64,000 bases of DNA, from NCBI GenBank assembly GCA_015062395.1, contig SUUS01000004.1, positions 18,943 through 82,942 of the forward strand, given 5' to 3'. The DNA comes from Alphaproteobacteria bacterium (GTDB lineage Bacteria; Pseudomonadota; Alphaproteobacteria; CAAHEQ01; UBA3637). Position numbers and translations under genes: made by a program. Numbering within the stretch: position 1 is the first letter of the stretch; the number at the start of each line of letters is the position of its first letter. Positions 2,014-55,009 of the stretch are shown here, in pieces. The notes under the pieces are model-generated. The model was not told where the DNA came from. It saw only the letters and a list, made by a program, of their open reading frames with translations, and searched no databases.

Positions 2014-4509
2014 TTACATACATATAACTTCTGCCATACCATCTTCTCTATTAGAATTGACATATTCATCGCTTACTTGGTAATACTTATTTACTGTACC
2101 GTCAATCTCATCTTCTTCTGTCCCTGCGGATGTTGAAGTCCAAACATTGATATCACTCCATTCTTTTATTAAGCTATCCGAACAGGTTTTTCCTTCTTTT
2201 CCATTCCAATTTGGACAGATATCACGAACGGAAGGTAGCGACATTCCAATTTGTTTACATATTTGTTCTCCATGTATATGGTCAATAAAGTCTATACTGC
2301 AAAAACTTACTTCATTCAATTCAATTAATTCGCCGATACCACCACATTTTTTACAGGTTCCATCAGTGAGAGTATATTCATCAGAACATTGCAGACATTT
2401 GCATTCATCTCCATATGCTAAACAACCCGTAATGTCTGAACATTTTTCGCATTTTCCCATTGCATCACATTGACCATCAACGCCGTTTGAGTATGCGCAC
2501 AAAGAACCAGGGCCAAGTTGATTTAAGCTTGGACATACACCTTCTTGGGCATTGACAAGTACGAAGCACGGACTTGGTTCCACGATAGCACAACACTTTT
2601 TAGCGACTTCATTATATGGTTCATCTTCAGGACATCCACCACCACCAGAGGACGAAGAAGAGGAGCTGCTCGATGATGAACTACTACTACTTGATGAAGA
2701 AGAACTACTCGATGAAGAGCTGCTAGTACTGCTAGAGCTCGAAGAAGAACTCGAAGAACTGCTGCTACTACTCGAGCTACTACTACTTGAAGAAGAGCTA
2801 CTGGAGCTTGACGAAGAGCTTGACGAGCTGGATGAACTACAGCTTGGAGCGCTTGTACATCCACAATCATTTCCGTTCGCTGGACAACAAAGAACAGCAT
2901 CTTCGGTTCTGCAACATTCTCCAGTTGGTTTCCAAACCTTTTCAACTTCAACATATCTGAAGCAAGTTATTCCATTGTAATCATAGGTTTCTTCTTCGCA
3001 ACAACCTGTTGGGCAAGAAGTGTCTGGGCATTCACCACAATCAGGATCATCGACGGAGCAGAATCCGTCATCACAATGATATTTGCACCCACCAGATGGT
3101 GGACATAAAGAATCATCATCATACCAGCTAGTTCCATCTTCTGTACATCTTCCACATTCGTTACTAGTAGACCACTGTCCTTCGCCATCACAAAAGCATA
3201 TAGTAACTCCGTCTTCATCTTCCCGAAGTTCACCAGGTGTACATTTTTTTGTTATGCATTCACATGTTGTTTCATCCCAAACAGCTGGAGGAATACAAAG
3301 GAAACAATGTTTGTAGTCATCAGAGGATGAATTTTCACATGTTCTCCAACCAATAGCTTCATCACAACAGCAAGTATAGGTATATGAACCATTGCTTTCT
3401 TGTCTGGAATCACAAACATAATATCCTTCTTGGGTACAAGGACAAGCACAAGTTATCTGACTTCCATCATCACAGGAATACTCAAAAGTGTCGTTTTCGC
3501 TACAGTAAGACGTATCTGTCGCTACATTCGGACAGTAGCACCCACCACCAGAAGAGCTGGAACTGCTACTACTTGAGCTCGAAGAAGAACTCGACGATGA
3601 ACTACTTGAAGAAGAGCTCGAGCTTGATGAAGAACTACTTGAAGACGAACTGGACGAACTCGAACTGCTAGAGCTGCTACAAGATGGATCAGGCGTACAA
3701 GAAATCATGCAAGCGTCTTCATCAGTCGGACAACAAGTGTCAGTTTGATTGCAGCATGTTCCCGTATAAATTGTGACTTCTTCGACTTTTAATTTGGTTA
3801 AGCAACCATATTCATCGTATTCGTCTTCTGTGATGGAGCAACTTTTTCGTGCATTTGTACTGTCACATACTCTGGTTTGACAAGTATAACCACGCCATCC
3901 ATTGTCACAAATACATTTGCCGTTAGTATCTCTGTATCCATGTCCATTACATTCATTTCTGGATACGTTGCCTCGTCTGTCGCCCCATAAAATTTTGAAA
4001 ACAACATCATTGTCTTCTTCTTGACAAGCAAGCGTTGTACCATCAACCAGAACGCTTTCAAACAATGCATTTTTTTCATCCGTCACTAAGTGGGTACAGA
4101 CGCCATAGCTGACAGGGTTGGTTGTCAAAAAGATGTAATTCGCATTATGAGTAATTGTTTTAATAAAATCCTTTTTTCCGTAGTAAGCAATTTCTCCTGA
4201 AGTAGTTGTACGAAGCCTGCGACGCCCTGTTAAATCGCTGGCAATTAATGTTGCTTCATCAGTTATGTTGTTTGCTTCGTTCCAGTCTAAAGCTTCTCGA
4301 ATTAATGCAATCGCCCCAATGGTTAAAATAGCAATAACAAATAAAACAGCAATCATTTCTAACATCGAACGCCCGAATTGAGAACGTCGAAATTGCAAAG
4401 CAGAATTGGAATTAGAAACAAGGTTTAAATCAGGAATGTCCTGTAAGTTGTTGATTTTACTTGAAAATTCGGGGGGGCAGGGGGTAAATTTGAATAAATT
4501 AATGGACAT
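2014..4509 (-). CDS. Giant type-IV-pilin-like, Cys-rich, poly-Ser-linked secreted/surface protein (putative pilus-associated adhesin)
   Basis: 831 aa. Residues 46-70 read G|RSMLEMIAVLFVIAILTIGAIALI (prepilin-peptidase-type motif, Glu at +5). The same motif family occurs in the two small pilins at 36.5-37.8 kb. AGGAAG lies 9 nt upstream of the ATG at 4509. Downstream there is an EGF-like CICDNGWRGYTC, many Cys-rich modules and two poly-Ser tracts. Confidence 0.7.
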   Translation of the reverse strand: MSINLFKFTPCPPEFSSKINNLQDIPDLNLVSNSNSALQFRRSQFGRSMLEMIAVLFVIAILTIGAIALIREALDWNEANNITDEATLIASDLTGRRRLRTTTSGEIAYYGKKDFIKTITHNANYIFLTTNPVSYGVCTHLVTDEKNALFESVLVDGTTLACQEEDNDVVFKILWGDRRGNVSRNECNGHGYRDTNGKCICDNGWRGYTCQTRVCDSTNARKSCSITEDEYDEYGCLTKLKVEEVTIYTGTCCNQTDTCCPTDEDACMISCTPDPSCSSSSSSSSSSSSSSSSSSSSSSSSSSSSSSSSSSSSSSSSSSSGGGCYCPNVATDTSYCSENDTFEYSCDDGSQITCACPCTQEGYYVCDSRQESNGSYTYTCCCDEAIGWRTCENSSSDDYKHCFLCIPPAVWDETTCECITKKCTPGELREDEDGVTICFCDGEGQWSTSNECGRCTEDGTSWYDDDSLCPPSGGCKYHCDDGFCSVDDPDCGECPDTSCPTGCCEEETYDYNGITCFRYVEVEKVWKPTGECCRTEDAVLCCPANGNDCGCTSAPSCSSSSSSSSSSSSSSSSSSSSSSSSSSSSSSSSSSSSSTSSSSSSSSSSSSSSSSSSSSSSSSSSGGGGCPEDEPYNEVAKKCCAIVEPSPCFVLVNAQEGVCPSLNQLGPGSLCAYSNGVDGQCDAMGKCEKCSDITGCLAYGDECKCLQCSDEYTLTDGTCKKCGGIGELIELNEVSFCSIDFIDHIHGEQICKQIGMSLPSVRDICPNWNGKEGKTCSDSLIKEWSDINVWTSTSAGTEEDEIDGTVNKYYQVSDEYVNSNREDGMAEVICM
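2641..2838 (-). repeat. Low-complexity Ser-codon repeat (AGC/AGT/TCN) encoding a ~66-residue poly-Ser linker
   Basis: The plus strand reads as GAAGAGCTn/ACTn iterations. The protein reads SCSSSS..(one T)..SSSGGGGCPEDE. Confidence 0.8.
3551..3684 (-). repeat. Low-complexity Ser-codon repeat encoding a ~45-residue poly-Ser linker
   Basis: The protein reads PDPSCSSSS...SSSGGGCYCPN. The DNA is imperfect Ser-codon iterations. Confidence 0.8.
4471..4477 (-). repeat. Homopolymeric C7 tract (G7 on the plus strand) inside codons 11-13 (P-C-P-P) of the 831-aa gene. A C5 follows 2 nt away.
   Basis: Sequence gaattcGGGGGGGcaGGGGGtaaa. The sense strand reads ttt acc ccc tgc ccc ccc gaa. Confidence 0.8.
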
Positions 4510-4552
4510 ATTAAATACTTCCTTTCTGATATAATTTCTATTAATTTGTCTT

Positions 4553-4581
4553 ATTTTAAATAAAACGAATCCTTAAGTCAA
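4553..4581 (-). promoter_or_regulatory. Sigma70-like promoter for the 831-aa pilin-like gene
   Basis: Minus-strand sense reads TTGACT-17 nt-TAAAAT, about 45 nt upstream of the ATG. Confidence 0.45.
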
Positions 4582-4597
4582 GAATGTTTTTTTATCT

Positions 4598-4738
4598 CGT
4601 CATATTGAGCGAGTGCGAAATATCTCATCACGTGTAGTACTGCCTACGTGCAAAAACTTCCAGAGATTCTTCGGGCTAGCGCCCTTCAGAATGACGTACG
4701 ACACATACTACGTCATATTTCGCGTTCGTTCAATATGA
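4598..4738. repeat. Palindromic repeat element, copy 1 (hairpin-rich, 'atgacgt' family) with ~27-bp imperfect terminal inverted repeats
   Basis: 4598-4624 gtcatattgagcgagtgcgaaatat is the reverse complement of 4711-4738 (atatttcgcgttcgttcaatatgac). The 38-nt core 4660-4697 (ccagagattcttcgggctagcgcccttcagaatgacgt) matches, in reverse orientation, the core at 37223-37259 (35/38 nt). Internal hairpin atgacgta/tacgtcat. Confidence 0.55.
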
Positions 4739-4817: not shown

Positions 4818-4825
4818 AGGGGGGG
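4818..4825. repeat. G8 homopolymer in the intergenic region between the 122-aa gene and the 831-aa gene
   Basis: Sequence aaaaaGGGGGGGGatgg. A G/C run is unusual for a ~33% GC sequence. Confidence 0.7.
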
Positions 4826-4866
4826 GATGGTGTTTTTTGTCAAATGATATAAACAACAAAGTTTTT

Positions 4867-15786: not shown

Positions 15787-16443
15787 ATGAAACTGAAACG
15801 TTTTTTATTGATTTTATTTTTCTGTTTGTTCGGAATGTCCGTCTACGCGATGGACTTTCCGACATTAACAGGACAGGTAGTTGACGAGGCGGGTATTATC
15901 AATACTAAAACAGAAGAAGAAATTTTATCAATGTTGCGTGAAGGGCAGCAGTTTGTTGTTGTCACATTGAAGGATTTAAGAGGTTATGAAATTGAAGAAT
16001 ACGGGGTGGAATTGGCTCGTCATTGGAAGATTGGAACAAAAGAACATGATGATGGGGTTTTGTTAATTGTTGCTCCAAATGAAAGGCAAGTACGTATCGA
16101 AGTTGGATATGGTTTAGAGGGGGTTTTAACAGATGCCAAGAGTTCAGAAATTATCCGTCATATTTTATTACCTGCGTTTAAAGTGGGGAATTATAATGAT
16201 GGAATTGTTAGGGCTGTTGATGCGATTAATCGAATTATTGCTGGAGAGCAAGTCGATGTTGAAACAGGCGAGTTGAGTTTTTTTGAAGTCATCTTTATGA
16301 TATTCTTTTTTTTGTTCGTTTTGTTTGCAAATCTAACGCCCTCTCATTCAGATGGTTCAGGCGGCGGTGGAGGCTCTCACAGAAGTTCATTTCGTGGTGG
16401 AGGAGGTTCTTTTGGCGGTGGAGGCGCTTCTGGTAGATGGTAA
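15787..16443 (+). CDS. TPM-domain (YgcG-like) protein with a C-terminal TM helix and a Gly-rich FGGGGASGRW tail
   Basis: Signal peptide, a TPM-domain core (..VVTLKDLRGYEIEEYGVELARHWKIGTKEHDDGVLLIVAPNERQVRIEVGYGLEG..), a TM helix, then GGGGGSHRSSFRGGGGSFGGGGASGRW*. Confidence 0.8.
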   Translation: MKLKRFLLILFFCLFGMSVYAMDFPTLTGQVVDEAGIINTKTEEEILSMLREGQQFVVVTLKDLRGYEIEEYGVELARHWKIGTKEHDDGVLLIVAPNERQVRIEVGYGLEGVLTDAKSSEIIRHILLPAFKVGNYNDGIVRAVDAINRIIAGEQVDVETGELSFFEVIFMIFFFLFVLFANLTPSHSDGSGGGGGSHRSSFRGGGGSFGGGGASGRW

Positions 16444-17135
16444 TGCAAGAAACTCTATCTTTACGTGAAAAAATAAAAAAGTATAAAAAAGAAAATAGAA
16501 CTTATTTTTTGGCTCAAGAAAAAACTACAAAAAAGTTAGAGCAAGAACTTTTAAAAAAAGGGAATTATACTCGTTTGTGGTGGAACAGAACAAGTTATTT
16601 TCTGCCACAACAAAAATCATCAGAGGTGGATGATTTTTTATCCGACTTGGGTGGACGGAATTGTGATGCTTTTTCTGTTTCTAGCTTATCTAAAAGAGAT
16701 ATTTGGGTTCTTTTTATATATTATTTAATTTGTATCGGAATTCGAATTTATAGCCAATGGGGTTTGTTACATGATCTTTATTCTGTTGAAAATTCTATAG
16801 GTATTTTATTGTATCGTGTGTCGTTTGAAGCATTGCTTGTTTTGATTTGTTTTTTATTTTTAGGCTTCTTTTTGTTTGCAGTTGTTTTTATTCTATTTTG
16901 TTTTTTTGATGTTATTTTGATATTCGTTTACTTAATTTCCTCTAATAAAAAAAGGCAATATTTAGATGAAAAGTTTTCAGATGAAAATTGTGGTGTCGTT
17001 GTTATGAAAATTTGGTGTTGGATATTTAAATTTATTTTATCTGTTTTGTCATTTTCATATCTTGGTAAACTTTTTTCTTCTTTTAAGGGAGCCAGTGGTT
17101 CTTTTGGTGGAGGAGGCGCTTCTGGTAGATGGTAG
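16437..17135 (+). CDS. Polytopic membrane protein sharing the FGGGGASGRW C-terminal tail (no TPM domain)
   Basis: 232 aa. The ATG lies inside the agATGGta of the previous gene's tail codons. Ends ..GASGSFGGGGASGRW*. Confidence 0.6.
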   Translation: MVMQETLSLREKIKKYKKENRTYFLAQEKTTKKLEQELLKKGNYTRLWWNRTSYFLPQQKSSEVDDFLSDLGGRNCDAFSVSSLSKRDIWVLFIYYLICIGIRIYSQWGLLHDLYSVENSIGILLYRVSFEALLVLICFLFLGFFLFAVVFILFCFFDVILIFVYLISSNKKRQYLDEKFSDENCGVVVMKIWCWIFKFILSVLSFSYLGKLFSSFKGASGSFGGGGASGRW

Positions 17136-17908
17136 ATTTTTTTTGCTTTTTTTTACTTTTTGCTTTAGTCCTTTTTTTATCGTTTAGAAAACAGCATTTT
17201 ACTGTACGTGAAAATATAAAAAGGATATATGGGTCGGATGACGCAAATTTCATCCGTTATCCAAGGCGTTCTTCATCCGTTTTTCAGACAATTTTAAGTA
17301 TTTTTTCTGCTGTTTTAGTTCTTTTTATGTTTTGTTTTTTCTTTTGGTGGCTTATATTTCCATTGGATGCAGTTATTGAGAATAATATTGATAAACTGAT
17401 GCCAATATTTTTGACTATATTCTTTTTCATCTCTTTTCTTGAAACAATAATTTTATATAAGGAAAACGAAGATTTTCAACGGATTATAAAAAAGCTTCTT
17501 TTGTTTTTTTTAATTTATTTTTTGCCGTCGATTTTAATTTGTTTTTTTTCATATTGTTATTATAAAGAAAATATCTTGGATATGGGGATATTCCTTTTCT
17601 TTGTTTTTTCTTTTTTTCTTTGTTTGGCTGTTAATATATCAATATGTGTCAGTGCTTTTTTGGGCATTGTTTTTATTTATGGAATCGGGTATTTTTTTAT
17701 TGTTTTTTATAGCCTTCTTACAGGAAAAAGGATAAATGCGATTAAATGTCCGGCTTTTTCTCATCGTTTTTTTCACAATTTTTGGATGGTTTGTTTTTGG
17801 ATGATGACGTTTTATTACGTATATTGGTTTTTCGGAAAGTTATTAGGGGTATTTCAATCGGGAAAAGGAAATTTCGGTGGGGGAGGCGCTTCTGGTAGAT
17901 GGAAATAA
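17129..17908 (+). CDS. Polytopic membrane protein sharing the FGGGGASGRW(K) C-terminal tail
   Basis: 259 aa with ~6 TM helices. The ATG is embedded in the previous gene's tail. Ends ..GKGNFGGGGASGRWK*. Confidence 0.6.
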   Translation: MVDFFCFFLLFALVLFLSFRKQHFTVRENIKRIYGSDDANFIRYPRRSSSVFQTILSIFSAVLVLFMFCFFFWWLIFPLDAVIENNIDKLMPIFLTIFFFISFLETIILYKENEDFQRIIKKLLLFFLIYFLPSILICFFSYCYYKENILDMGIFLFFVFSFFLCLAVNISICVSAFLGIVFIYGIGYFFIVFYSLLTGKRINAIKCPAFSHRFFHNFWMVCFWMMTFYYVYWFFGKLLGVFQSGKGNFGGGGASGRWK

Positions 17909-36381: not shown

Positions 36382-36444
36382 GATTTTGATAAAGGAGGTA
36401 TTCTGAAGGGCGTTTGCCTGATGAATGTCTAAAAAGAATAAAAA

Positions 36445-36473
36445 AACGTCCTTGAAAAACAAGGACGTTTTGT
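36445..36473. terminator. Bidirectional rho-independent terminator (atpC and pilin A)
   Basis: Hairpin acgtccttg-aaaaa-caaggacgt with T/A runs on both sides. The identical hairpin recurs at 37335-37366. Confidence 0.65.
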
Positions 36474-36494
36474 AAAGATTTAATTTAAGCTAAA

Positions 36495-36911
36495 TTAAAT
36501 TTCGAATGTAAATACGATGACGCCTTCTCCTGCTCCAGCAGCAATTTGTGGGTTCGCATTTGCAGAGTTACGAGTTGTGATAGCTTCTGCAACAGCTGTA
36601 CCAAGATTCGGTGTTGTGAGTGTGAATTCATTATTGGCATTAACAGCACTAACTTGATAATCAACGGCATTTCCAATTGGAGCTGTATCTGTCATAAGAG
36701 CATTACAGGTTGTAGCGCCTAAATCAGCTGCAGCACCTGAACCACGTGTTTGAGCCAAAACACCACAACGGGATACATATTCCAAAACGCTGTTAGCGCG
36801 ATGACGGTTCATAGCCATTGTGTAACCAGCCAAACCACCGATTGACAAAACACCGATAATTGCCAATACACCCAACATTTCAATCATAGAACGACCATAT
36901 TCTTTTTTCAT
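36495..36911 (-). CDS. Type IV pilin (major-pilin-like), paralogue A
   Basis: 138 aa. MKKEYG|RSMIEMLGVLAIIGVLSIGGLAGY.. has a short basic leader, a Gly cleavage site and Glu at +5. Two Cys in the C-terminal half. Confidence 0.8.
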   Translation of the reverse strand: MKKEYGRSMIEMLGVLAIIGVLSIGGLAGYTMAMNRHRANSVLEYVSRCGVLAQTRGSGAAADLGATTCNALMTDTAPIGNAVDYQVSAVNANNEFTLTTPNLGTAVAEAITTRNSANANPQIAAGAGEGVIVFTFEI

Positions 36912-37100
36912 TTTTTATTCCTTTTTTTATTAGGTTAATAACCATTTTAAAATTTATCGCAGAGCATTTTATAAAGCAAGAAAAATATCATTACAAAATG
37001 CAAAGTTATTTTTCTCGAAAATCAGAATAAAACAAAATTTATTAATAGTTTGTAAAAAATAAAAATTTTTATTTTTTTAGTTGTTTTCTTTTTTTTTGTA
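36912..37100 (-). promoter_or_regulatory. Conserved pilin 5' region (putative promoter, TTGCTT-17-TAAATT) shared with paralogue B
   Basis: ~85% identical to 37797-37959, including the RBS region. Confidence 0.4.
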
Positions 37101-37176: not shown

Positions 37177-37320
37177 TTCAGGAGATCTTTCGCATACGCT
37201 CAAGATGACGTGGAGGTATAATACGTCATTCTGAAGGGGGTAGCCCGAAGAATCTCTGGAGGCAGTACCTTAATTCAAGAGATCCTTCACATCCGTTCAG
37301 GATGACGTACATGCATGACG
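37177..37320. repeat. Palindromic repeat element, copy 2 (opposite orientation to copy 1), between the two pilin paralogues
   Basis: Core 37223-37259 acgtcattctgaagggggtagcccgaagaatctctgg is the reverse complement of 4660-4697. It is flanked by ~35-bp direct repeats ttcaRgagatcYttc.cat.cgYtcaRgatgacgt (37177-37211 and 37277-37311), which are related to the copy-1 terminal repeats. Confidence 0.55.
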
Positions 37321-37334
37321 CAAAAGGATGAAAA

Positions 37335-37366
37335 AAACGTCCTTGAAAAACAAGGACGTTTTGTGA
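37335..37366 (-). terminator. Rho-independent terminator of pilin paralogue B (identical to the one after paralogue A)
   Basis: aaacgtccttg-aaaaa-caaggacgtttt. Confidence 0.65.
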
Positions 37367-37385
37367 AGATTTAATTTAAGCTAAA

Positions 37386-37796
37386 TTAAATTCCGAATGT
37401 AAATTGAACAGCGTCATCACCACTAGCAGCAATTTGTGGGTTCGCATTTGCAGAGTTACGAGCAACGATTGCTTCTGCAATGGATTCTCCAATAGCTGGT
37501 GTTGTAATTGTGAATTCATCATCAGCAGCTGCGCCAACGACGTACTCTGCAGCTGCACCAATTGGAGCTGTATCTGTCATAAGAGCACCACAGGTTGTAG
37601 CAGTTAAATCATCTGCAGCACCTGAACCACGTGTTTGAGCCAAAACAGCACAACGGGATACATATTCCATAACGGAGTTAGCGCGATGACGGTTCATAGC
37701 CATTGTGTAACCAGCCAAACCACCGATTGACAAAACACCGATAATTGCCAATACACCCAACATTTCAATCATAGAACGACCATATTCTTTTTTCAT
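37386..37796 (-). CDS. Type IV pilin, paralogue B
   Basis: 136 aa. The first ~60 aa are nearly identical to paralogue A. The C-terminal half has diverged (AEYVVGAAADDEFTITTPAIGESIAEAIVARNSANANPQIAASGDDAVQFTFGI). Confidence 0.8.
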   Translation of the reverse strand: MKKEYGRSMIEMLGVLAIIGVLSIGGLAGYTMAMNRHRANSVMEYVSRCAVLAQTRGSGAADDLTATTCGALMTDTAPIGAAAEYVVGAAADDEFTITTPAIGESIAEAIVARNSANANPQIAASGDDAVQFTFGI

Positions 37797-37959
37797 TTTT
37801 TTTATTCCTTTTTTTGTTATAGGTTAATAACCATTTTAAAATTTATCACAGTGCATTTTACAATGCAAGAAAAATATCATCACAAAATGCAAAGTTATTT
37901 TCCTCGTAAATCAGGATAAAGCGAAATTTATTAACAATGTGTAAATAAAATAAAAATTT
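37797..37959 (-). promoter_or_regulatory. Conserved pilin 5' region of paralogue B
   Basis: Duplicate of 36912-37100. Confidence 0.4.
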
Positions 37960-39024
37960 TTATTTTTCTTGTATTTTTTTTACGGCAGACTTTAATTGCC
38001 CACAGGCAGCCATGATGTCTTGTCCACGCGATACACGAATGGGGGCAGCGATATATGCATCTTCCAATACGCGTGCAAAACGGTGTATTTGATTATTGGA
38101 TGTCGGTTCAAATCCACAGTTTTCCCAAGGATTAAAGGGAATTAAATTAAATTTGACTTCCAATCCTTTGACCAATTGGATTAATTCTTTTGCATTTTCC
38201 AGCGAATCGTTAACACCCTTTAACAACACGTATTCCATCGTGATGTATTGACGATGTTGTTGACGTGCTTGAAATTCATGACATGCTTTTATTAATACTT
38301 CCAACGGATATTTTTTATTAATCGGCATAATTTTATTGCGAATCGAATCGTTCGATGCGTGCAAACTGATTGCTAACTTAACGCCCAAATCAGTCGCCAG
38401 ATTCGGAATTTTATCAGCGATTCCACATGTTGATACCGTCACGCGTCTTTTGGATAAAGCGATTCCTTGTCCGTCTGTCAAGATTCGCATTGCTTGGACC
38501 AAATTATCGTAATTCATTAATGGTTCACCCATGCCCATTACAACTACATTGGATAAAAAACGTGTTTCATTGGTGGGGGATGGCCATTCGCCATAACTGT
38601 CTCTGGCAGCCATGAATTGCCCCACAATTTCTCCTGCCGTTAAATTACGCAACATCTTTTGCGTTCCTGTATGACAGAACTTGCATCCCATTAAGCATCC
38701 AACTTGCGTCGATAGGCAAACAGCTCCCCGATCTTCTTCTGGAATATAAACAGTTTCAACTTCATTTCCGTCAGCGAATCGAAATAACCATTTGCGTGTT
38801 CCATCTGTTGAATTTTTTTCAGTTATTACTTCTGGACGTGAAATGATATATTTTTCAGACAACTTTTGTTGAAACGCTTTTGACAAAGATGACATTTTGA
38901 AAAAATCAGTTTCACCTTTGTTATAGATCCATTGCCATAATTGTTTTGTCCGAAAGGGTTTCTCTCCCATTTCGGACAAAAGTGATGTTAATTGTTCGTT
39001 AGATAGGCCAACTAAATCTTGCAT
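37960..39024 (-). CDS. rlmN: 23S rRNA m2A2503 / tRNA m2A37 methyltransferase (radical SAM)
   Basis: CLSTQVGCLMGCKFCHTG radical-SAM cluster. MGMGEPLMN, C-terminal ..GQDIMAACGQL. Confidence 0.9.
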   Translation of the reverse strand: MQDLVGLSNEQLTSLLSEMGEKPFRTKQLWQWIYNKGETDFFKMSSLSKAFQQKLSEKYIISRPEVITEKNSTDGTRKWLFRFADGNEVETVYIPEEDRGAVCLSTQVGCLMGCKFCHTGTQKMLRNLTAGEIVGQFMAARDSYGEWPSPTNETRFLSNVVVMGMGEPLMNYDNLVQAMRILTDGQGIALSKRRVTVSTCGIADKIPNLATDLGVKLAISLHASNDSIRNKIMPINKKYPLEVLIKACHEFQARQQHRQYITMEYVLLKGVNDSLENAKELIQLVKGLEVKFNLIPFNPWENCGFEPTSNNQIHRFARVLEDAYIAAPIRVSRGQDIMAACGQLKSAVKKIQEK

Positions 39025-51171: not shown

Positions 51172-52205
51172 AATAATGTAGCCAATCCAATCAATCCCAT
51201 AAAAAATGAAAACAACCAAAAGCAGCGAACAACTTTGACTTCACTCCATCCTTTTTTTTCAAAATGGTGATGAATAGGCGCCATTAAAAAAATCCGTTTT
51301 TTAAAACGTTTGTATGAAAATACTTGTATCACATCCGACAGCGCTTCGATGACAAATAATGAACCGATAATAGCCAGTAATAATTCCTGATGTAAACAAA
51401 TGGCCATCATTCCCAATACAGCCCCCATTCCTAGAGCACCGATATCTCCCATAAAAATTTGAGCAGGTTTTTTATTGTAGTATAAAAATGCTAAAAGCGC
51501 TCCACAGGATGCTGATGCAAAAATACTAATAACCCAAACATCTGGTATATAAAAAAGCGAAACCCGTCTGGCTAAAGTTAAATCTCCTGTGATTATTCCC
51601 AATATGGCAAAGCAAATAAAAGAAATAATTAATGGTACGGAAACCAATCCATCTAATCCATCGGTTAAATTAACGGCATTGACGGTTCCTGTAAAAACGA
51701 ATGCGGCAAAAACAACATAAAGAAAACTTAATCCAAATACTGTTTTAAAATAAGGTATTTGTAGTGCTGTCATTACTTTTGTGGGCGTTAAATACATTGC
51801 AAAAAGTATAGCGATGGTTGCGACGATAAATTCAATGAGCAATCGTTTGTTTTCAGAAATACCATTTGGGGAAGAACTTTTTAACTTGCAAAAATCGTCA
51901 TAGAACCCTAAAAGTCCCATAGATAACATTACAAAAATTAAAATCCAAAGGAAGCCATTTGTAAGGGGACACCACAACAACACAGAAACCAATGTTGATA
52001 ATAATATAACAATCCCCCCCATTGTTGGCGTTCCTTTTTTGGTAAGGTGCGTTTGAGGACCGTTTAATCTGATGGGTTGTTCTTTTTTTAAGCTTTTCAT
52101 TTTGTTTATAAATTTGGGCATACCTAAAAAACAAAGCAGATATGCTGTTAAAAAAGCGATTAAACAAGACATTAAAACATTCGAAGATAAAACTGAAAAA
52201 AGCAT
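51168..52205 (-). CDS. mraY: Phospho-N-acetylmuramoyl-pentapeptide transferase
   Basis: ..NAVNLTDGLDGL.. and ..MGDIGALGMGAVLG.. Confidence 0.9.
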   Translation of the reverse strand: MLFSVLSSNVLMSCLIAFLTAYLLCFLGMPKFINKMKSLKKEQPIRLNGPQTHLTKKGTPTMGGIVILLSTLVSVLLWCPLTNGFLWILIFVMLSMGLLGFYDDFCKLKSSSPNGISENKRLLIEFIVATIAILFAMYLTPTKVMTALQIPYFKTVFGLSFLYVVFAAFVFTGTVNAVNLTDGLDGLVSVPLIISFICFAILGIITGDLTLARRVSLFYIPDVWVISIFASASCGALLAFLYYNKKPAQIFMGDIGALGMGAVLGMMAICLHQELLLAIIGSLFVIEALSDVIQVFSYKRFKKRIFLMAPIHHHFEKKGWSEVKVVRCFWLFSFFMGLIGLATLL

Positions 52206-55009
52206 TATTGAAAAGCCTCCAAAATTTTGTCTAAACGCATAGAGTTAGAACCTTTTATCAAAACAGTATCTCCATCTTGCAGAACTGCTTTTAACGATTC
52301 TATTACTTCAGGTGCATTTAAAACAGCAACAGCCTTTTTGCTTTCAGGAAGAACATCAAAGAGTTGTTTTATTTCTTCTCCTATCGTAAAAACAAGGTCT
52401 ATGTTATTTTTTTCAATAATGTCTTTTAAGCCTATATGTAGTTGTCTGGATTCTGTACCCAGTTCTTTCATTTCACCCAAAACAGCAATTTTCCTTCCAG
52501 GATAACGAGACAGAACGTCTAGTGAGGCTGCCATTGATGCAGGATTTGCATTATAAGCATCATCAATAAATGTAATCGTTTTTCCATCTATTTCTTTTTG
52601 CAGTGTTGCACCACGACCTTTTAACGGTTTAATGTGTTTTAAGTTTTCTATCGCTTTATCCACATCAGCACCTAACGCCAAAACAACGCCCAATACTCCC
52701 AAGGCATTTTGAATAAAATGTAATCCTGCTAATTGAAGCTGAAGTTGTTTTATTTGTCCATTAATTTGTATTTGAGCAATCGACCCTTCTTTGTTTATGG
52801 CGTAGTTTAATAATTTTACGGAAGCTTCTGGCTTGGAACCAAATGAATAAATATGAGAAATATCATTTTCAGAAGCTCTTTGTTTTAAATGTTGGAATTG
52901 ATCATTATCTGCATTTAAGAAAACAGCCCCATTTTTATTCATAAATTTAAAGATTTCGGATTTTGCATCAGCAATTTGTTGAACGTCTTTAAAAAATTCA
53001 AGATGTGCCGAACAAATCATTGTAATCAGTACAATGTCTGGTTTTACCAAATAAGATAGATATTCCATTTCACCAATATGATTCATTCCCATTTCAATAA
53101 TCGTCCAGTTGGCCAACCTGGGCATACGGGCCAAAGTTAAAGGAACCCCCCATTGGTTGTTTAAGTTTCCTTGCGTAAAATGAACTTCTCCTTGTCCTTT
53201 TAAAGCTGTTGCTAGCATTTCTTTGGATGTAGTTTTTCCTGATGAACCAGTAATACCAATTTTAATTGTTTTTGAATTTTGTACAGCATATTTTGCCATA
53301 TCCTCTAATGCTTCATCTGTATTAGTGACAAAGAATAATTTATCTGTTTGGTCAACTTGAGGTACATCTCTGCTAACAATCGCTGCCGCAGCACCTTTTT
53401 GGAGTGCATCGGCAACAAAATCATGTCCATCAAATTTTTCTCCTTTTAACGCAACGTAAATATCTCCAGGGATAATCGTTCTTGAATCAATAGAAACACC
53501 ATAGCCAATGAATGCTTTGTAAGCTTTTCCCCCAGTTGCTTTTTTCAATTCATCGCTTGTCCATAATGGTTTTTCTTCTTGTGATTTTAAGGCTAACAGC
53601 GCTTGGATGCGATCGTTAAAAGGATGGTTAAATCCATTAATCATTTGTCCTTCTTCATGACCTTTACCTGCAATTAACAAGCAATCTGCTTTTTGCAGTT
53701 TTCGAATCGCATGATAAATCGCTTTTGCTCTGTCTGCAATCGGATGTGCATTGGGACAGCCTTGCATAATTTCTGAACGAATTTCGGCTGCATCTTCAAA
53801 ACGGGGATTGTCATCTGTGACGATAACGTAATCAGCTAATTGTGCTGCTATTTGTCCCATAATAGGACGTTTTCCACGATCTCTGTTCCCACCACAACCA
53901 AAAACAACATAAAGTTTGCCTTTTGTTTGTCTTTTCAATGAGGTCAACGCTGTTTCAAGTCCATCAGGTGTATGTGCATAGTCAACAAAAATAGTCGCCC
54001 CAGTTTTTGTTTGAGCAATTAATTCCATTCTGCCAGCTGGACTTTTTAAGTGAGACAATGCCATTATAACATCAGGGATTGCAAAATTTAAAGATAAAAC
54101 CAAACCGATAGCTGCTAATACATTATAGCCTTGAAAGTTTCCTGCAACTGGCAGATGGACATCGTATCTTTCTCCGAATACTTCTAATGTTAAATCTTGT
54201 CCTGTTTCATAAAGTTTTTGATTTATTAAACGTATTTGTTGCCCTTGTTTTCCATAGGAAATAACATTTAATCCCTTTTGCTGGCAAATTTTTTGAATAG
54301 TTGTAAATTCTGGTATATCTGCGTTTAATACGGCTGTTTGCGTTGTTAATTCAGTAAATAAACGCATTTTTGCCATCAGATAATTTTCCATATTTTGATG
54401 ATAATCTAAATGGTCGCGTGTCAAGTTTGTAAATGCTGCAGCTTTGAATTTTAATCCACTTAATCTGTCTTGGTCCAAACCATGCGAGGATGCTTCTAAT
54501 GCTACGTAATTTACACTGTTTTCTGACAGCGTTTGTAAATCTTTACTTAAGGTAATACTGTCTGTTGTTGTCATTCCTGCATATGAATGATGATTTTTGG
54601 ACTGAACGCCTAATGTGCCAATACTGGCAGCATTTTTTCCAAGAGCTTCCAAAATTTCACGAACAAAAAAGACAGTAGAAGTTTTTCCATTTGTTCCTGT
54701 GACAGCCAATAAATTTTCAGGGTAATTTTGATAAAATAAAGACGCCAATTTAGCCATTGCTTGTCTGGCATTTTTAACTTCAAAAACTGGGATTTGCGCT
54801 TCAACAGGTGTGTCTGTTAAAATTGCAACTGCACCATTTGAAATAGCTTCTGGAATGTAAGAAAGACCACTTTCTTTATTTCCATTTACAGCAATGAATA
54901 AATTTCCTTTTTCAACTTTTCTAGAATCACAGGCAATTCCTGTTATTTCAAAATCAGCTTCAAAAGGCGTTGTAATTTCAGCTTTTTTTAATAATTCAGA
55001 CAATATCAT
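52205..55009 (-). CDS. murE: Fused MurE (meso-DAP-adding ligase) - MurF (D-Ala-D-Ala-adding ligase) polypeptide
   Basis: 934 aa single ORF. The N-terminal half is MurE (..VTGTNGKTSTVFF.., DNPR). From about residue 470 (WTSDELKKATGGKA..IYVALKGEKFDGHDFV..GITGSSGKTTSKEM) it is MurF. Confidence 0.8.
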   Translation of the reverse strand: MILSELLKKAEITTPFEADFEITGIACDSRKVEKGNLFIAVNGNKESGLSYIPEAISNGAVAILTDTPVEAQIPVFEVKNARQAMAKLASLFYQNYPENLLAVTGTNGKTSTVFFVREILEALGKNAASIGTLGVQSKNHHSYAGMTTTDSITLSKDLQTLSENSVNYVALEASSHGLDQDRLSGLKFKAAAFTNLTRDHLDYHQNMENYLMAKMRLFTELTTQTAVLNADIPEFTTIQKICQQKGLNVISYGKQGQQIRLINQKLYETGQDLTLEVFGERYDVHLPVAGNFQGYNVLAAIGLVLSLNFAIPDVIMALSHLKSPAGRMELIAQTKTGATIFVDYAHTPDGLETALTSLKRQTKGKLYVVFGCGGNRDRGKRPIMGQIAAQLADYVIVTDDNPRFEDAAEIRSEIMQGCPNAHPIADRAKAIYHAIRKLQKADCLLIAGKGHEEGQMINGFNHPFNDRIQALLALKSQEEKPLWTSDELKKATGGKAYKAFIGYGVSIDSRTIIPGDIYVALKGEKFDGHDFVADALQKGAAAAIVSRDVPQVDQTDKLFFVTNTDEALEDMAKYAVQNSKTIKIGITGSSGKTTSKEMLATALKGQGEVHFTQGNLNNQWGVPLTLARMPRLANWTIIEMGMNHIGEMEYLSYLVKPDIVLITMICSAHLEFFKDVQQIADAKSEIFKFMNKNGAVFLNADNDQFQHLKQRASENDISHIYSFGSKPEASVKLLNYAINKEGSIAQIQINGQIKQLQLQLAGLHFIQNALGVLGVVLALGADVDKAIENLKHIKPLKGRGATLQKEIDGKTITFIDDAYNANPASMAASLDVLSRYPGRKIAVLGEMKELGTESRQLHIGLKDIIEKNNIDLVFTIGEEIKQLFDVLPESKKAVAVLNAPEVIESLKAVLQDGDTVLIKGSNSMRLDKILEAFQ

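Follow-up and report, generated by a model that had tools for sequence, protein, structure and literature searches.

An interrupted poly-C tract in the long leader of a modular pilin-like gene from an uncultured alphaproteobacterium: an apparently stabilised relative of a probable family contingency tract

The DNA considered here is a 64,000-nucleotide stretch of contig SUUS01000004.1 (hereafter the window) from an uncultured low-GC gut alphaproteobacterium, which encodes on its minus strand an 831-residue modular pilin-like protein with a poly-C tract, C5-TG-C7, in the leader-coding part of its gene. A first-pass annotation had proposed that the leader, tract included, acts as a translational ON/OFF cassette through slipped-strand phase variation. 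Comparison with related loci retained one part of this proposal, as the leader belongs to a shared 5' cassette and uninterrupted C12 tracts occur in sister copies and in the leader of P0086, the protein closest in its pilin module, and did not support another, as the window copy itself looks fixed. With modest confidence we favour the reading that the window tract derives from a poly-C contingency tract of the gene family and has become stabilised, being either fixed ON or slow to switch. The elements of the window gene on which this reading depends are the following.

2014..4509, minus strand: 831-aa gene for the modular pilin-like protein, an 831-codon open reading frame (ORF) from the ATG at 4509-4507
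4553..4581, minus strand: sigma-70-like promoter, TTGACT-17-TAAAAT, 10/12 consensus matches
4518..4523, minus strand: Shine-Dalgarno sequence AGGAAG, 8 nt before the ATG, kept in sister cassettes
4372..4509, minus strand: entire leader-coding region of 46 codons, the last of them Gly46 (4374-4372)
4444..4509, minus strand: conserved leader N-terminus, codons 1-22, MSINLFKFTPCPPEFSSKINNL, differing from sister copies only inside the tract and at one synonymous site
4471..4484, minus strand: tract C5-TG-C7, with C5 at 4484-4480, TG at 4479-4478 and C7 at 4477-4471
4396..4398, minus strand: in-frame TTG, codon 38, without a Shine-Dalgarno sequence, unique to the window and absent from homologues
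4300..4371, minus strand: putative prepilin-peptidase site and alpha-1 N-terminal segment, G|RSMLEMIAVLFVIAILTIGAIALI, with Arg at +1 and Glu at +5

The gene opens ATG TCC ATT AAT TTA TTC AAA TTT ACC CCC TGC CCC CCC GAA, and the tract occupies codons 9-13 (ACC CCC TGC CCC CCC; T P C P P), reading as G7 (4471-4477) and G5 (4480-4484) on the plus strand; its position inside the leader codons is thus as first annotated. The C7 falls within codons 11-13, near the 5' end of the reading frame, and just reaches the cut-off of at least 7 used for such tracts. Three C/G runs of at least 7 occur in the window (at 4471, 4819 and 52014), where order-1/2 Markov simulations expect about 0.8 (P for at least 3 = 0.03-0.06) and order-3/4 models expect about 3, and the packing of four runs of at least 5 into 360 bp has P of about 0.08. 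By these statistics the tract is uncommon and not compelling, and run counts alone are not decisive. The codons are more telling: in the other genes the share among synonymous codons is 11% for CCC (Pro), 8% for ACC (Thr) and 25% for TGC (Cys), and all three CCC codons of the 831-aa gene lie within the tract. Since the rarest codons fill the tract throughout, its C-richness is not explained by the encoded peptide and points to a nucleotide-level constraint or to mutational history. Simulated loss of one C (C6) gave a 27-aa peptide and simulated gain (C8) likewise stopped early, both within 17-27 codons of the ATG, leaving the pilin body with only a TTG start that has no Shine-Dalgarno sequence.

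Contigs over the window tract were retrieved by exact-protein look-ups with the 831-aa protein, a 122-aa ORF, a 181-aa kinase and GatB. Scanning metagenome and genome contig collections for the DNA of the leader start, both as a degenerate and as an exact pattern, gave no match, in collections from which this lineage is absent. In every contig spanning it, from 10 samples, the tract read C5-TG-C7 in frame, and no length change by non-multiples of three was seen at this locus among these consensus contigs. The sole strain variant of the window allele (L010) has two substitutions, both inside the tract, which leave its length unchanged and its longest run at C6. Two other runs in the window served as a comparison.

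4819..4826, minus strand: intergenic C8 (plus strand: G8), situated 310 nt before the ATG and just past the 122-aa ORF
52014..52020, coding strand: G7 in mraY, codons 62-64 (ACA ATG GGG GGG ATT)

The C8 is the longest G/C run of the window and is unvaried in all contigs covering it, the divergent L010 and L035 included, and the presence of a G7 within the essential mraY gene indicates that 7-mers are tolerated in housekeeping genes of this organism. Together with the interruption of the tract, the unvaried C8 and the G7 of mraY, the constancy of the tract at the consensus level goes against an active switch in this particular copy.

Some further observations concern the same contigs. The C8 was considered as a promoter-spacer tract and rejected: a TTGACA precedes it, but no -10-like hexamer lies closer than about 26 nt, and a consensus promoter scan reported no promoter at 4819-4826. 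Fragmented gene calls in two contigs (L015 and L016) proved to be a gene-caller artefact, the DNA being 100% identical to the window. One contig from JGI 3300024272 (L033, 3502-3657) matches the window without a difference as far as about 4916, a point within the 3' end of the 122-aa ORF, and shares no similarity with it thereafter, and another (L034) ends at the same point, so the 831-aa gene region appears, from these sequences, to be a strain-variable segment.

Judged from the DNA, the promoter, Shine-Dalgarno sequence, ATG and first 21 codons form a cassette common to several pilin-like genes of one metagenome-assembled genome (MAG). Between the window and the locus of the homologue P0001 (L019), DNA is identical from -18 to codon 21, the only differences being 3 nt inserted or deleted within the tract and a single synonymous change, and identity drops to about 70% beyond codon 21; the cassette copies generally differ most within the tract. 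The sister copies also keep the -35 box and its surrounding sequence, so that the transcript should start upstream of the tract. By their locus tags, P0001, P0036, P0064, P0281, P0282 and the two short pilins of the window all belong to the same E7013 MAG, and several E7013 family records are 'partial' at contig ends; the pilin-like genes are a multigene family within one genome, one that breaks assemblies. The states of the tract in the copies compared are listed below.

Window copy, 10 samples: C5-TG-C7 (14 nt), in frame
L010, ERZ28594203: C6-G-C-T-C5 (14 nt), in frame (TPRSPE)
L019 (P0001), JGI 3300032167: C5-T-C5, in frame
L020 (P0009), ERZ28594461: C4-T-C4, in frame
L021 (P0010), ERZ27316818: no run (CCT CTC CGC), in frame
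L035 (2656-2667), JGI 3300018494: C12, frame broken
L036 and L037, JGI 3300032167 and 3300031555: C12, frame broken
L038, ERZ27317580: 13 nt, interrupted, out of frame

All in-frame variants keep the reading frame, and CCC is used at every tract Pro in three diverged copies even though it is a rare Pro codon. L035 represents the window's own locus, with the same flanks, intergenic region, promoter and ATG, and reads ATG ... TTT ACC CCC CCC CCC CGA ATT TTC AAG TAA through the tract; a P0036-type pilin body lies behind the cassette, and the gene is called from an internal ATG. The same C12 cassette with a P0036-type body recurs behind other flanks in L036 and L037, the latter from the metagenome that also yielded the 77-kb contig of the window, and in all three copies the frame breaks after codon 12 and the gene call begins at an internal ATG. 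L038 is a short contig, possibly error-ridden around the tract.

Length variation of the expected kind was also found outside the cassette, in the cluster of P0086 (573 aa), whose pilin module is the most similar to that of the 831-aa protein (39% identity, E 9e-27; 35% identity for P0001). The P0086 leader of 20 residues (MKAYISSAKKSILYPPPPTG|RSM) contains an in-frame C12 at L040 1242-1253, so that C12 is carried by two unrelated leaders of the family. The cluster formed by P0086 at 90% identity comprises 12 members on at least 20 contigs and displays four tract states: most members read YPPPP(T/A)G; P0289 reads YPPPAG, one proline fewer; P0294 begins MHYESLYFLIKKEHIIPPPPAG, which translates the DNA ahead of the tract in the other frame and would fit C11 or C14; and P0287 (2 contigs) has its gene call at the Met of RSMIEM, its leader being out of frame. 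The source samples of the window tract, the C12 cassette and the L040 tract are JGI 3300031555, 3300018494, 3300032167, 3300024268-72, 3300018493/95/878 and 3300022660, ENA ERZ27248351/436 and ERZ28594203, and SRR29134093. Length differences between near-identical relatives that are not multiples of three are a classical signature of slipped-strand phase variation.

The proposed mechanism is as follows. The cassette would carry a poly-C tract at the position of codons 9-13, and in an uninterrupted C12 one C could be gained or lost by slipped-strand mispairing at replication, which we take as the probable cause of the length and frame differences among relatives. Such a gain or loss would bring the pilin body into the reading frame of its sole start codon, or take it out, and so yield heritable, reversible ON/OFF expression, out-of-frame copies presumably being silent. 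In the window copy, base substitutions would have broken a would-be C14 into C5-TG-C7 (14 nt), the gene remaining in frame with no change at the consensus level; interruption of this kind would be expected to lower the switching rate.

By sequence comparison the ATG at 4509 is the true start, with the tract inside the translated ORF and downstream of the predicted promoter, because the Shine-Dalgarno sequence and the leader N-terminus are conserved and homologues have no other in-frame start. Three homologues share the leader: P0001, the single relative from the first homology search (beginning MSINLFKFTPSPEFSSKINNL, 57 residues), and P0009 (MSVNLFKFLPLPRFLSKINNL..., 49 residues) and P0010 (MLLKSHKILPLRTLFNKLNNL..., 35 residues) from the second. 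All three keep the N-terminal motif MSINLFKFTPxPEFSSKINNL and the promoter, have a Shine-Dalgarno sequence ahead of the corresponding ATG, and contain no in-frame ATG, GTG or TTG within the leader. Pro10 is invariant across the four leader homologues. The leader of L020 has synonymous DNA changes, which indicates that conservation of the leader acts at the protein level. RNA structure as a cause of its DNA-level conservation was dropped, since folding of the 5' untranslated region (UTR) plus leader gave no structure (z = +0.56); Rfam reported no RNA family in the window.

Several statements of the first-pass annotation bear on the leader. The 45 residues before the cleavage-site Gly were recovered (Gly46 precedes RSMLEMIAVLFVIAILTIGAIALI), as was the contrast between a TTG without a ribosome-binding site and an ATG at 4509 with AGGAAG. 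The description of the leader as atypically long stands against studied systems, in which characterised prepilin leaders span 6-26 aa (PMC4471445), and less so against the family itself, whose annotated leaders have a median length of 18 residues and a range of 5-147. The range of 5-11 aa that had been given for the other pilin genes of the window needs correction, as both have leaders of 6 residues, MKKEYG.

The main rival is an active switch in the window copy, in which the C7, alone or with the C5, toggles the 831-aa gene within populations; we consider this possible but rather unlikely. Such a switch would suit a surface adhesin-like product, sister tracts that are longer and a run maintained by rare codons, and the early stop 17-27 codons from the ATG after either simulated change, with just the unassisted TTG left, would make it effective; the C7 also reaches the phasome cut-off of at least 7 (PMC6321876). 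The contigs of the 10 samples hold no length variant, however, and the 794-aa product from the TTG start that would be expected of an OFF variant is not on record in any assembly. L010 has C6 and C5 runs only, the adjacent C8 never varies, essential mraY tolerates G7, and tracts at the cut-off may be too stable (PMC6321876). At the other extreme, there may be no switch at all, the C-run being a by-product of a Pro leader motif and the variants being pseudogenes or homopolymer sequencing or assembly errors. Homopolymers of 12 are difficult for short-read assemblers; the C12 contigs have one length and end soon past the tract, L038 has an error-ridden appearance around it, and the invariant Pro10 would fit a peptide requirement. 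We nevertheless regard this explanation as improbable, as P0010 encodes the leader motif without a C-run (CCT CTC CGC), rare CCC stands at all tract prolines of three diverged copies, C12 recurs in two unrelated leaders, and the four states of the P0086 cluster are spread over 12 members and at least 20 contigs.

Two further alternatives leave the tract without a switching role and are both very improbable. If translation began at the TTG of codon 38, the leader would be (M)QFRRSQFG and the tract would lie in the 5' UTR or in a small upstream ORF; the TTG is in frame, and a 9-residue leader would resemble the common short leaders of the family. This start lacks a Shine-Dalgarno sequence and has no in-frame ATG, GTG or TTG counterpart in P0001, P0009 and P0010, and it would not account for the first 21 residues being conserved as protein, with synonymous changes in L020, or for the preservation of frame by every in-frame tract variant. 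Alternatively, the rare codons and Pro-Pro-Glu (PPE) might slow ribosomes early in translation, with dependence on elongation factor P, and so set the level of expression instead of switching it. PPE is a strong polyproline stalling motif, and the CCC, ACC and TGC codons are clustered as this would demand; Pro-Pro is missing, however, in P0001 (TPSPE), L010 (TPRSPE) and P0009 (LPLPR), no RNA structure was predicted in the 5' UTR and leader (z = +0.56), and the out-of-frame C12 copies would be left unexplained.

A number of points weigh against the favoured reading of a stabilised derivative. Tract lengths came from consensus assemblies, which report the majority length only, and the 10 samples may be non-independent, in view of their clustered JGI/ENA accession numbers and 100% DNA identity. 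The length differences within the P0086 cluster were read from protein N-termini and not from DNA. The C12 copies (L035, L036 and L037) may be one collapsed repeat or fixed pseudogenes: all C12 contigs have one length and identical downstream sequence to the contig ends, and an ON version (C11 or C14) of the C12 gene was not found in protein databases. L035 could be chimeric, joined through the roughly 50 nt of identical cassette. The order of events may have been either from perfect to interrupted tract or the reverse, and as the C7 reaches the Campylobacter cut-off of at least 7 (PMC6321876), some residual switching of the window tract may persist.

A more speculative extension, which we put forward tentatively and hold to be doubtful, is that the promoter, Shine-Dalgarno sequence, 21-codon leader and poly-C tract constitute a portable cassette behind which pilin bodies are exchanged by recombination. 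Between the same flanks stand the 831-aa body in the window and, in L035, a C12 followed by a P0036-type body; L038 likewise has a P0036-type body at the P0001 locus (L019). P0001-type and P0036-type bodies are also found behind a different, short leader, MQQNRDKKALKQHIQ(F/S)G (P0007/P0283 and P0281). The same flanks with different bodies, and the same bodies behind another leader, suggest a portable cassette and mosaic recombination, unless the contigs are chimeric.

The 831-aa protein is ordered as a 46-residue leader, a hydrophobic segment resembling a class III signal, a pilin-like module of about 130 residues reaching approximately residue 175, and Cys-rich modules. Its C-terminal portion of about 650 residues consists of Cys-rich segments with two poly-Ser linkers between them, and no Pfam family matched the protein above threshold. 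The large Cys-rich members of this pilin-like family are probably adhesins. The poly-Ser linkers (window 2650-2840 and 3560-3700, each about 45-55 residues) use mixed Ser codons with only a weak 12-21-nt periodicity, and the first is the end point of several metagenome contigs (e.g. those with products of 270-319 aa).

Membership of the family among type IV pilins is only partly established. Features of a class III signal are present, with Gly at -1, Glu at +5 and a hydrophobic stretch in QFG|RSMLEMIAVLFVIAILTIGAIALI, a motif found family-wide, and the leader would presumably be removed by a prepilin peptidase. The leaders of 46 residues here and of 35-57 residues in P0010, P0009 and P0001 depart from the short hydrophilic type of 6-26 aa. 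Matches to curated prepilin models were placed correctly and all fell below threshold: PF07963 (N_methyl) gave 13.5 bits for the 831-aa protein and 17.1 bits for a short pilin of the window (cut-off 21.2), TIGR02532 gave 12.5 (cut-off 16.3) and TIGR02523 (PilV) gave 25 bits (E 2e-5, cut-off 52.2). The predicted model of the N-terminal part of the 831-aa protein contains a helix at 44-97 with a predicted local distance difference test (pLDDT) score of 83-96 over residues 50-80 and of below 60 outside the helix, and the model of the 136-aa short pilin (pLDDT 82) has a helix at 5-54 and a small beta domain. Foldseek returned no significant match of the short pilin model in the PDB; a PDB profile search retrieved pilins only, at weak E-values of 0.3-0.7. 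No prepilin peptidase, assembly ATPase or platform gene was found within the 64-kb window.

A profile search of 1.84 billion representatives retrieved 5,572 proteins (E of at most 1e-3) with the signature xG|R(S/T)M(I/V/L)EMLGVLAIIGVLS, and 124 of 147 family representatives contain G|RSM(I/L/V)EM. Many members are 500-1,260 aa long, a quarter of the annotated leaders have at least 40 residues, and all named members are recorded as 'hypothetical protein [Alphaproteobacteria bacterium]' with no Pfam domain. Some of the long annotated leaders look like over-extended gene calls that enter upstream repeat elements. P0077, called from an internal Met, was examined as a further case of switching and rejected, as it has no homopolymer and no canonical start upstream: its sequence (L039 340-400) reads TAA AAC AAA GAA CAA AAA ACG ACA GGT CGC AGT ATG, without ATG, GTG or TTG between the in-frame stop and the G|RSM site, and either a non-canonical start or leaderless expression would apply. 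In P0008 (406 aa, L022 2990-3070) the start codon lies in the loop of a terminator-like hairpin right after secF (AAAAGCCTCTGTTAATGCAGAGGCTTTTTTTT), which is an odd position for a translation start.

The window contains other members of this family and a repeat associated with them.

36495..36911, minus strand: short pilin paralogue of the G|RSM family, 138 aa, MKKEYG|RSMIEMLGVLAIIGVLS, identical to NCBI E7013_01820
37386..37796, minus strand: short pilin paralogue of the G|RSM family, 136 aa, MKKEYG|RSMIEMLGVLAIIGVLS, identical to MBE6449423.1 (E7013_01825)
4659..4692, strand not assigned: GC-rich palindromic repeat ATTCTGAAGGGCG..GCCCGAAGAATCTCTGGA, intergenic, upstream of the 831-aa gene

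The short pilin genes are a tandem duplication of about 0.89 kb (36431-37092 and 37322-37981), with 5' halves 96% identical and the same strong hairpin, AAAACGTCCTTGAAAAACAAGGACGTTTT, behind both. Further copies of the palindromic repeat lie beside them (36400-36430 and 37236-37260), so that each of the three pilin-like genes of the window has a copy beside it, and copies also adjoin homologues in L020 (100-135, upstream), L036 and L037. The repeat may be a terminator, a mobile element or a recombination site; many of the over-long leaders of the family look like translated copies of this repeat. Elsewhere in the window, a 934-aa ORF within the dcw cluster (52205-55009) has two full Mur-ligase domain sets and is apparently a MurE-MurF fusion. 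Three ORFs (15787-16443, 16437-17135 and 17129-17908) share a Gly-rich C-terminus, ...FGGGGGASGRW, coded at 16386-16442, 17078-17134 and 17848-17904.

In summary, the switch mechanism considered here is a known one, of the Neisseria pilC kind, and the gene family to which it would apply, with the cleavage motif G|RSM, is uncharacterised. A C7 in a genome of 35% GC is insufficient to call a switch, which calls for caution with the window tract, and interrupted tracts may mark phase-locked alleles, a point relevant to the prediction of expression from metagenome assemblies. If the family-level switch is real, it would be, as far as we know and as far as a literature search indicated, the first evidence of simple-sequence-repeat phase variation in these uncultured low-GC gut Alphaproteobacteria, acting on a pilin-like family of more than 5,000 detected members. 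If the portable cassette is true, ON/OFF phase variation would be combined with cassette-style antigenic variation of modular tip adhesins, and the long cytoplasmic leader might have a function of its own, e.g. in regulated processing or docking. The comparison of leaders also indicates that the leader of a class-III-like signal can be conserved at a length of 35-57 residues, more than the 6-26 aa known from studied systems.

Among known systems, type IVb/Flp prepilins have hydrophilic class III leaders of 15-30 aa that are longer than those of type IVa, end in Gly and are cut on the cytoplasmic side (PMC4471445). The present leader is alike in being long, hydrophilic and Gly-ended, and unlike in its 46 residues (35-57 in homologues), its conserved 21-residue N-terminal motif, its Arg at +1 and its scores, which do not reach the Pfam and TIGRFAM prepilin thresholds. 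PilB of Streptococcus sanguinis (PMC8179133) is a modular pilin whose leader is short and whose extra module is von Willebrand A-like; the 831-aa protein, judged by its sequence, resembles it in an N-terminal pilin module with apparently grafted modules, probably presented on the pilus for adhesion, and differs in that the modules here are Cys-rich, joined by poly-Ser linkers and without a recognised domain. The abstract of PMC8179133 describes no phase-variable tract for PilB. In the phasome of Campylobacter jejuni defined with PhasomeIt, the G/C cut-off is at least 7 and variability was demonstrated for tracts of at least 8, and the authors noted that tracts at the cut-off are perhaps too stable for efficient switching (PMC6321876). 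C. jejuni likewise has a low-GC genome with rare 5' G/C homopolymers in genes for surface structures (PMC6321876), whereas the window lacks a phasome-like abundance of tracts (over 64 kb, three runs of at least 7, including that of mraY) and belongs to an uncultured alphaproteobacterium with interrupted in-frame derivatives. In Neisseria pilC1/pilC2, a poly-G tract in the region coding for the signal sequence causes frameshifts that turn expression ON or OFF (Jonsson et al. 1991, cited in PMC2193922). The likeness lies in a homopolymeric G/C tract within the N-terminal signal region of a large pilus-associated adhesin. PilC differs in not being a pilin and in bearing a class I signal peptide, while the present tract, an interrupted and at most putative switch, is part of a cytoplasmic leader preceding a class-III-like signal. 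The Neisseria pilC poly-G, together with the Campylobacter poly-G/C loci, is the closest mechanistic parallel to the tract described here.

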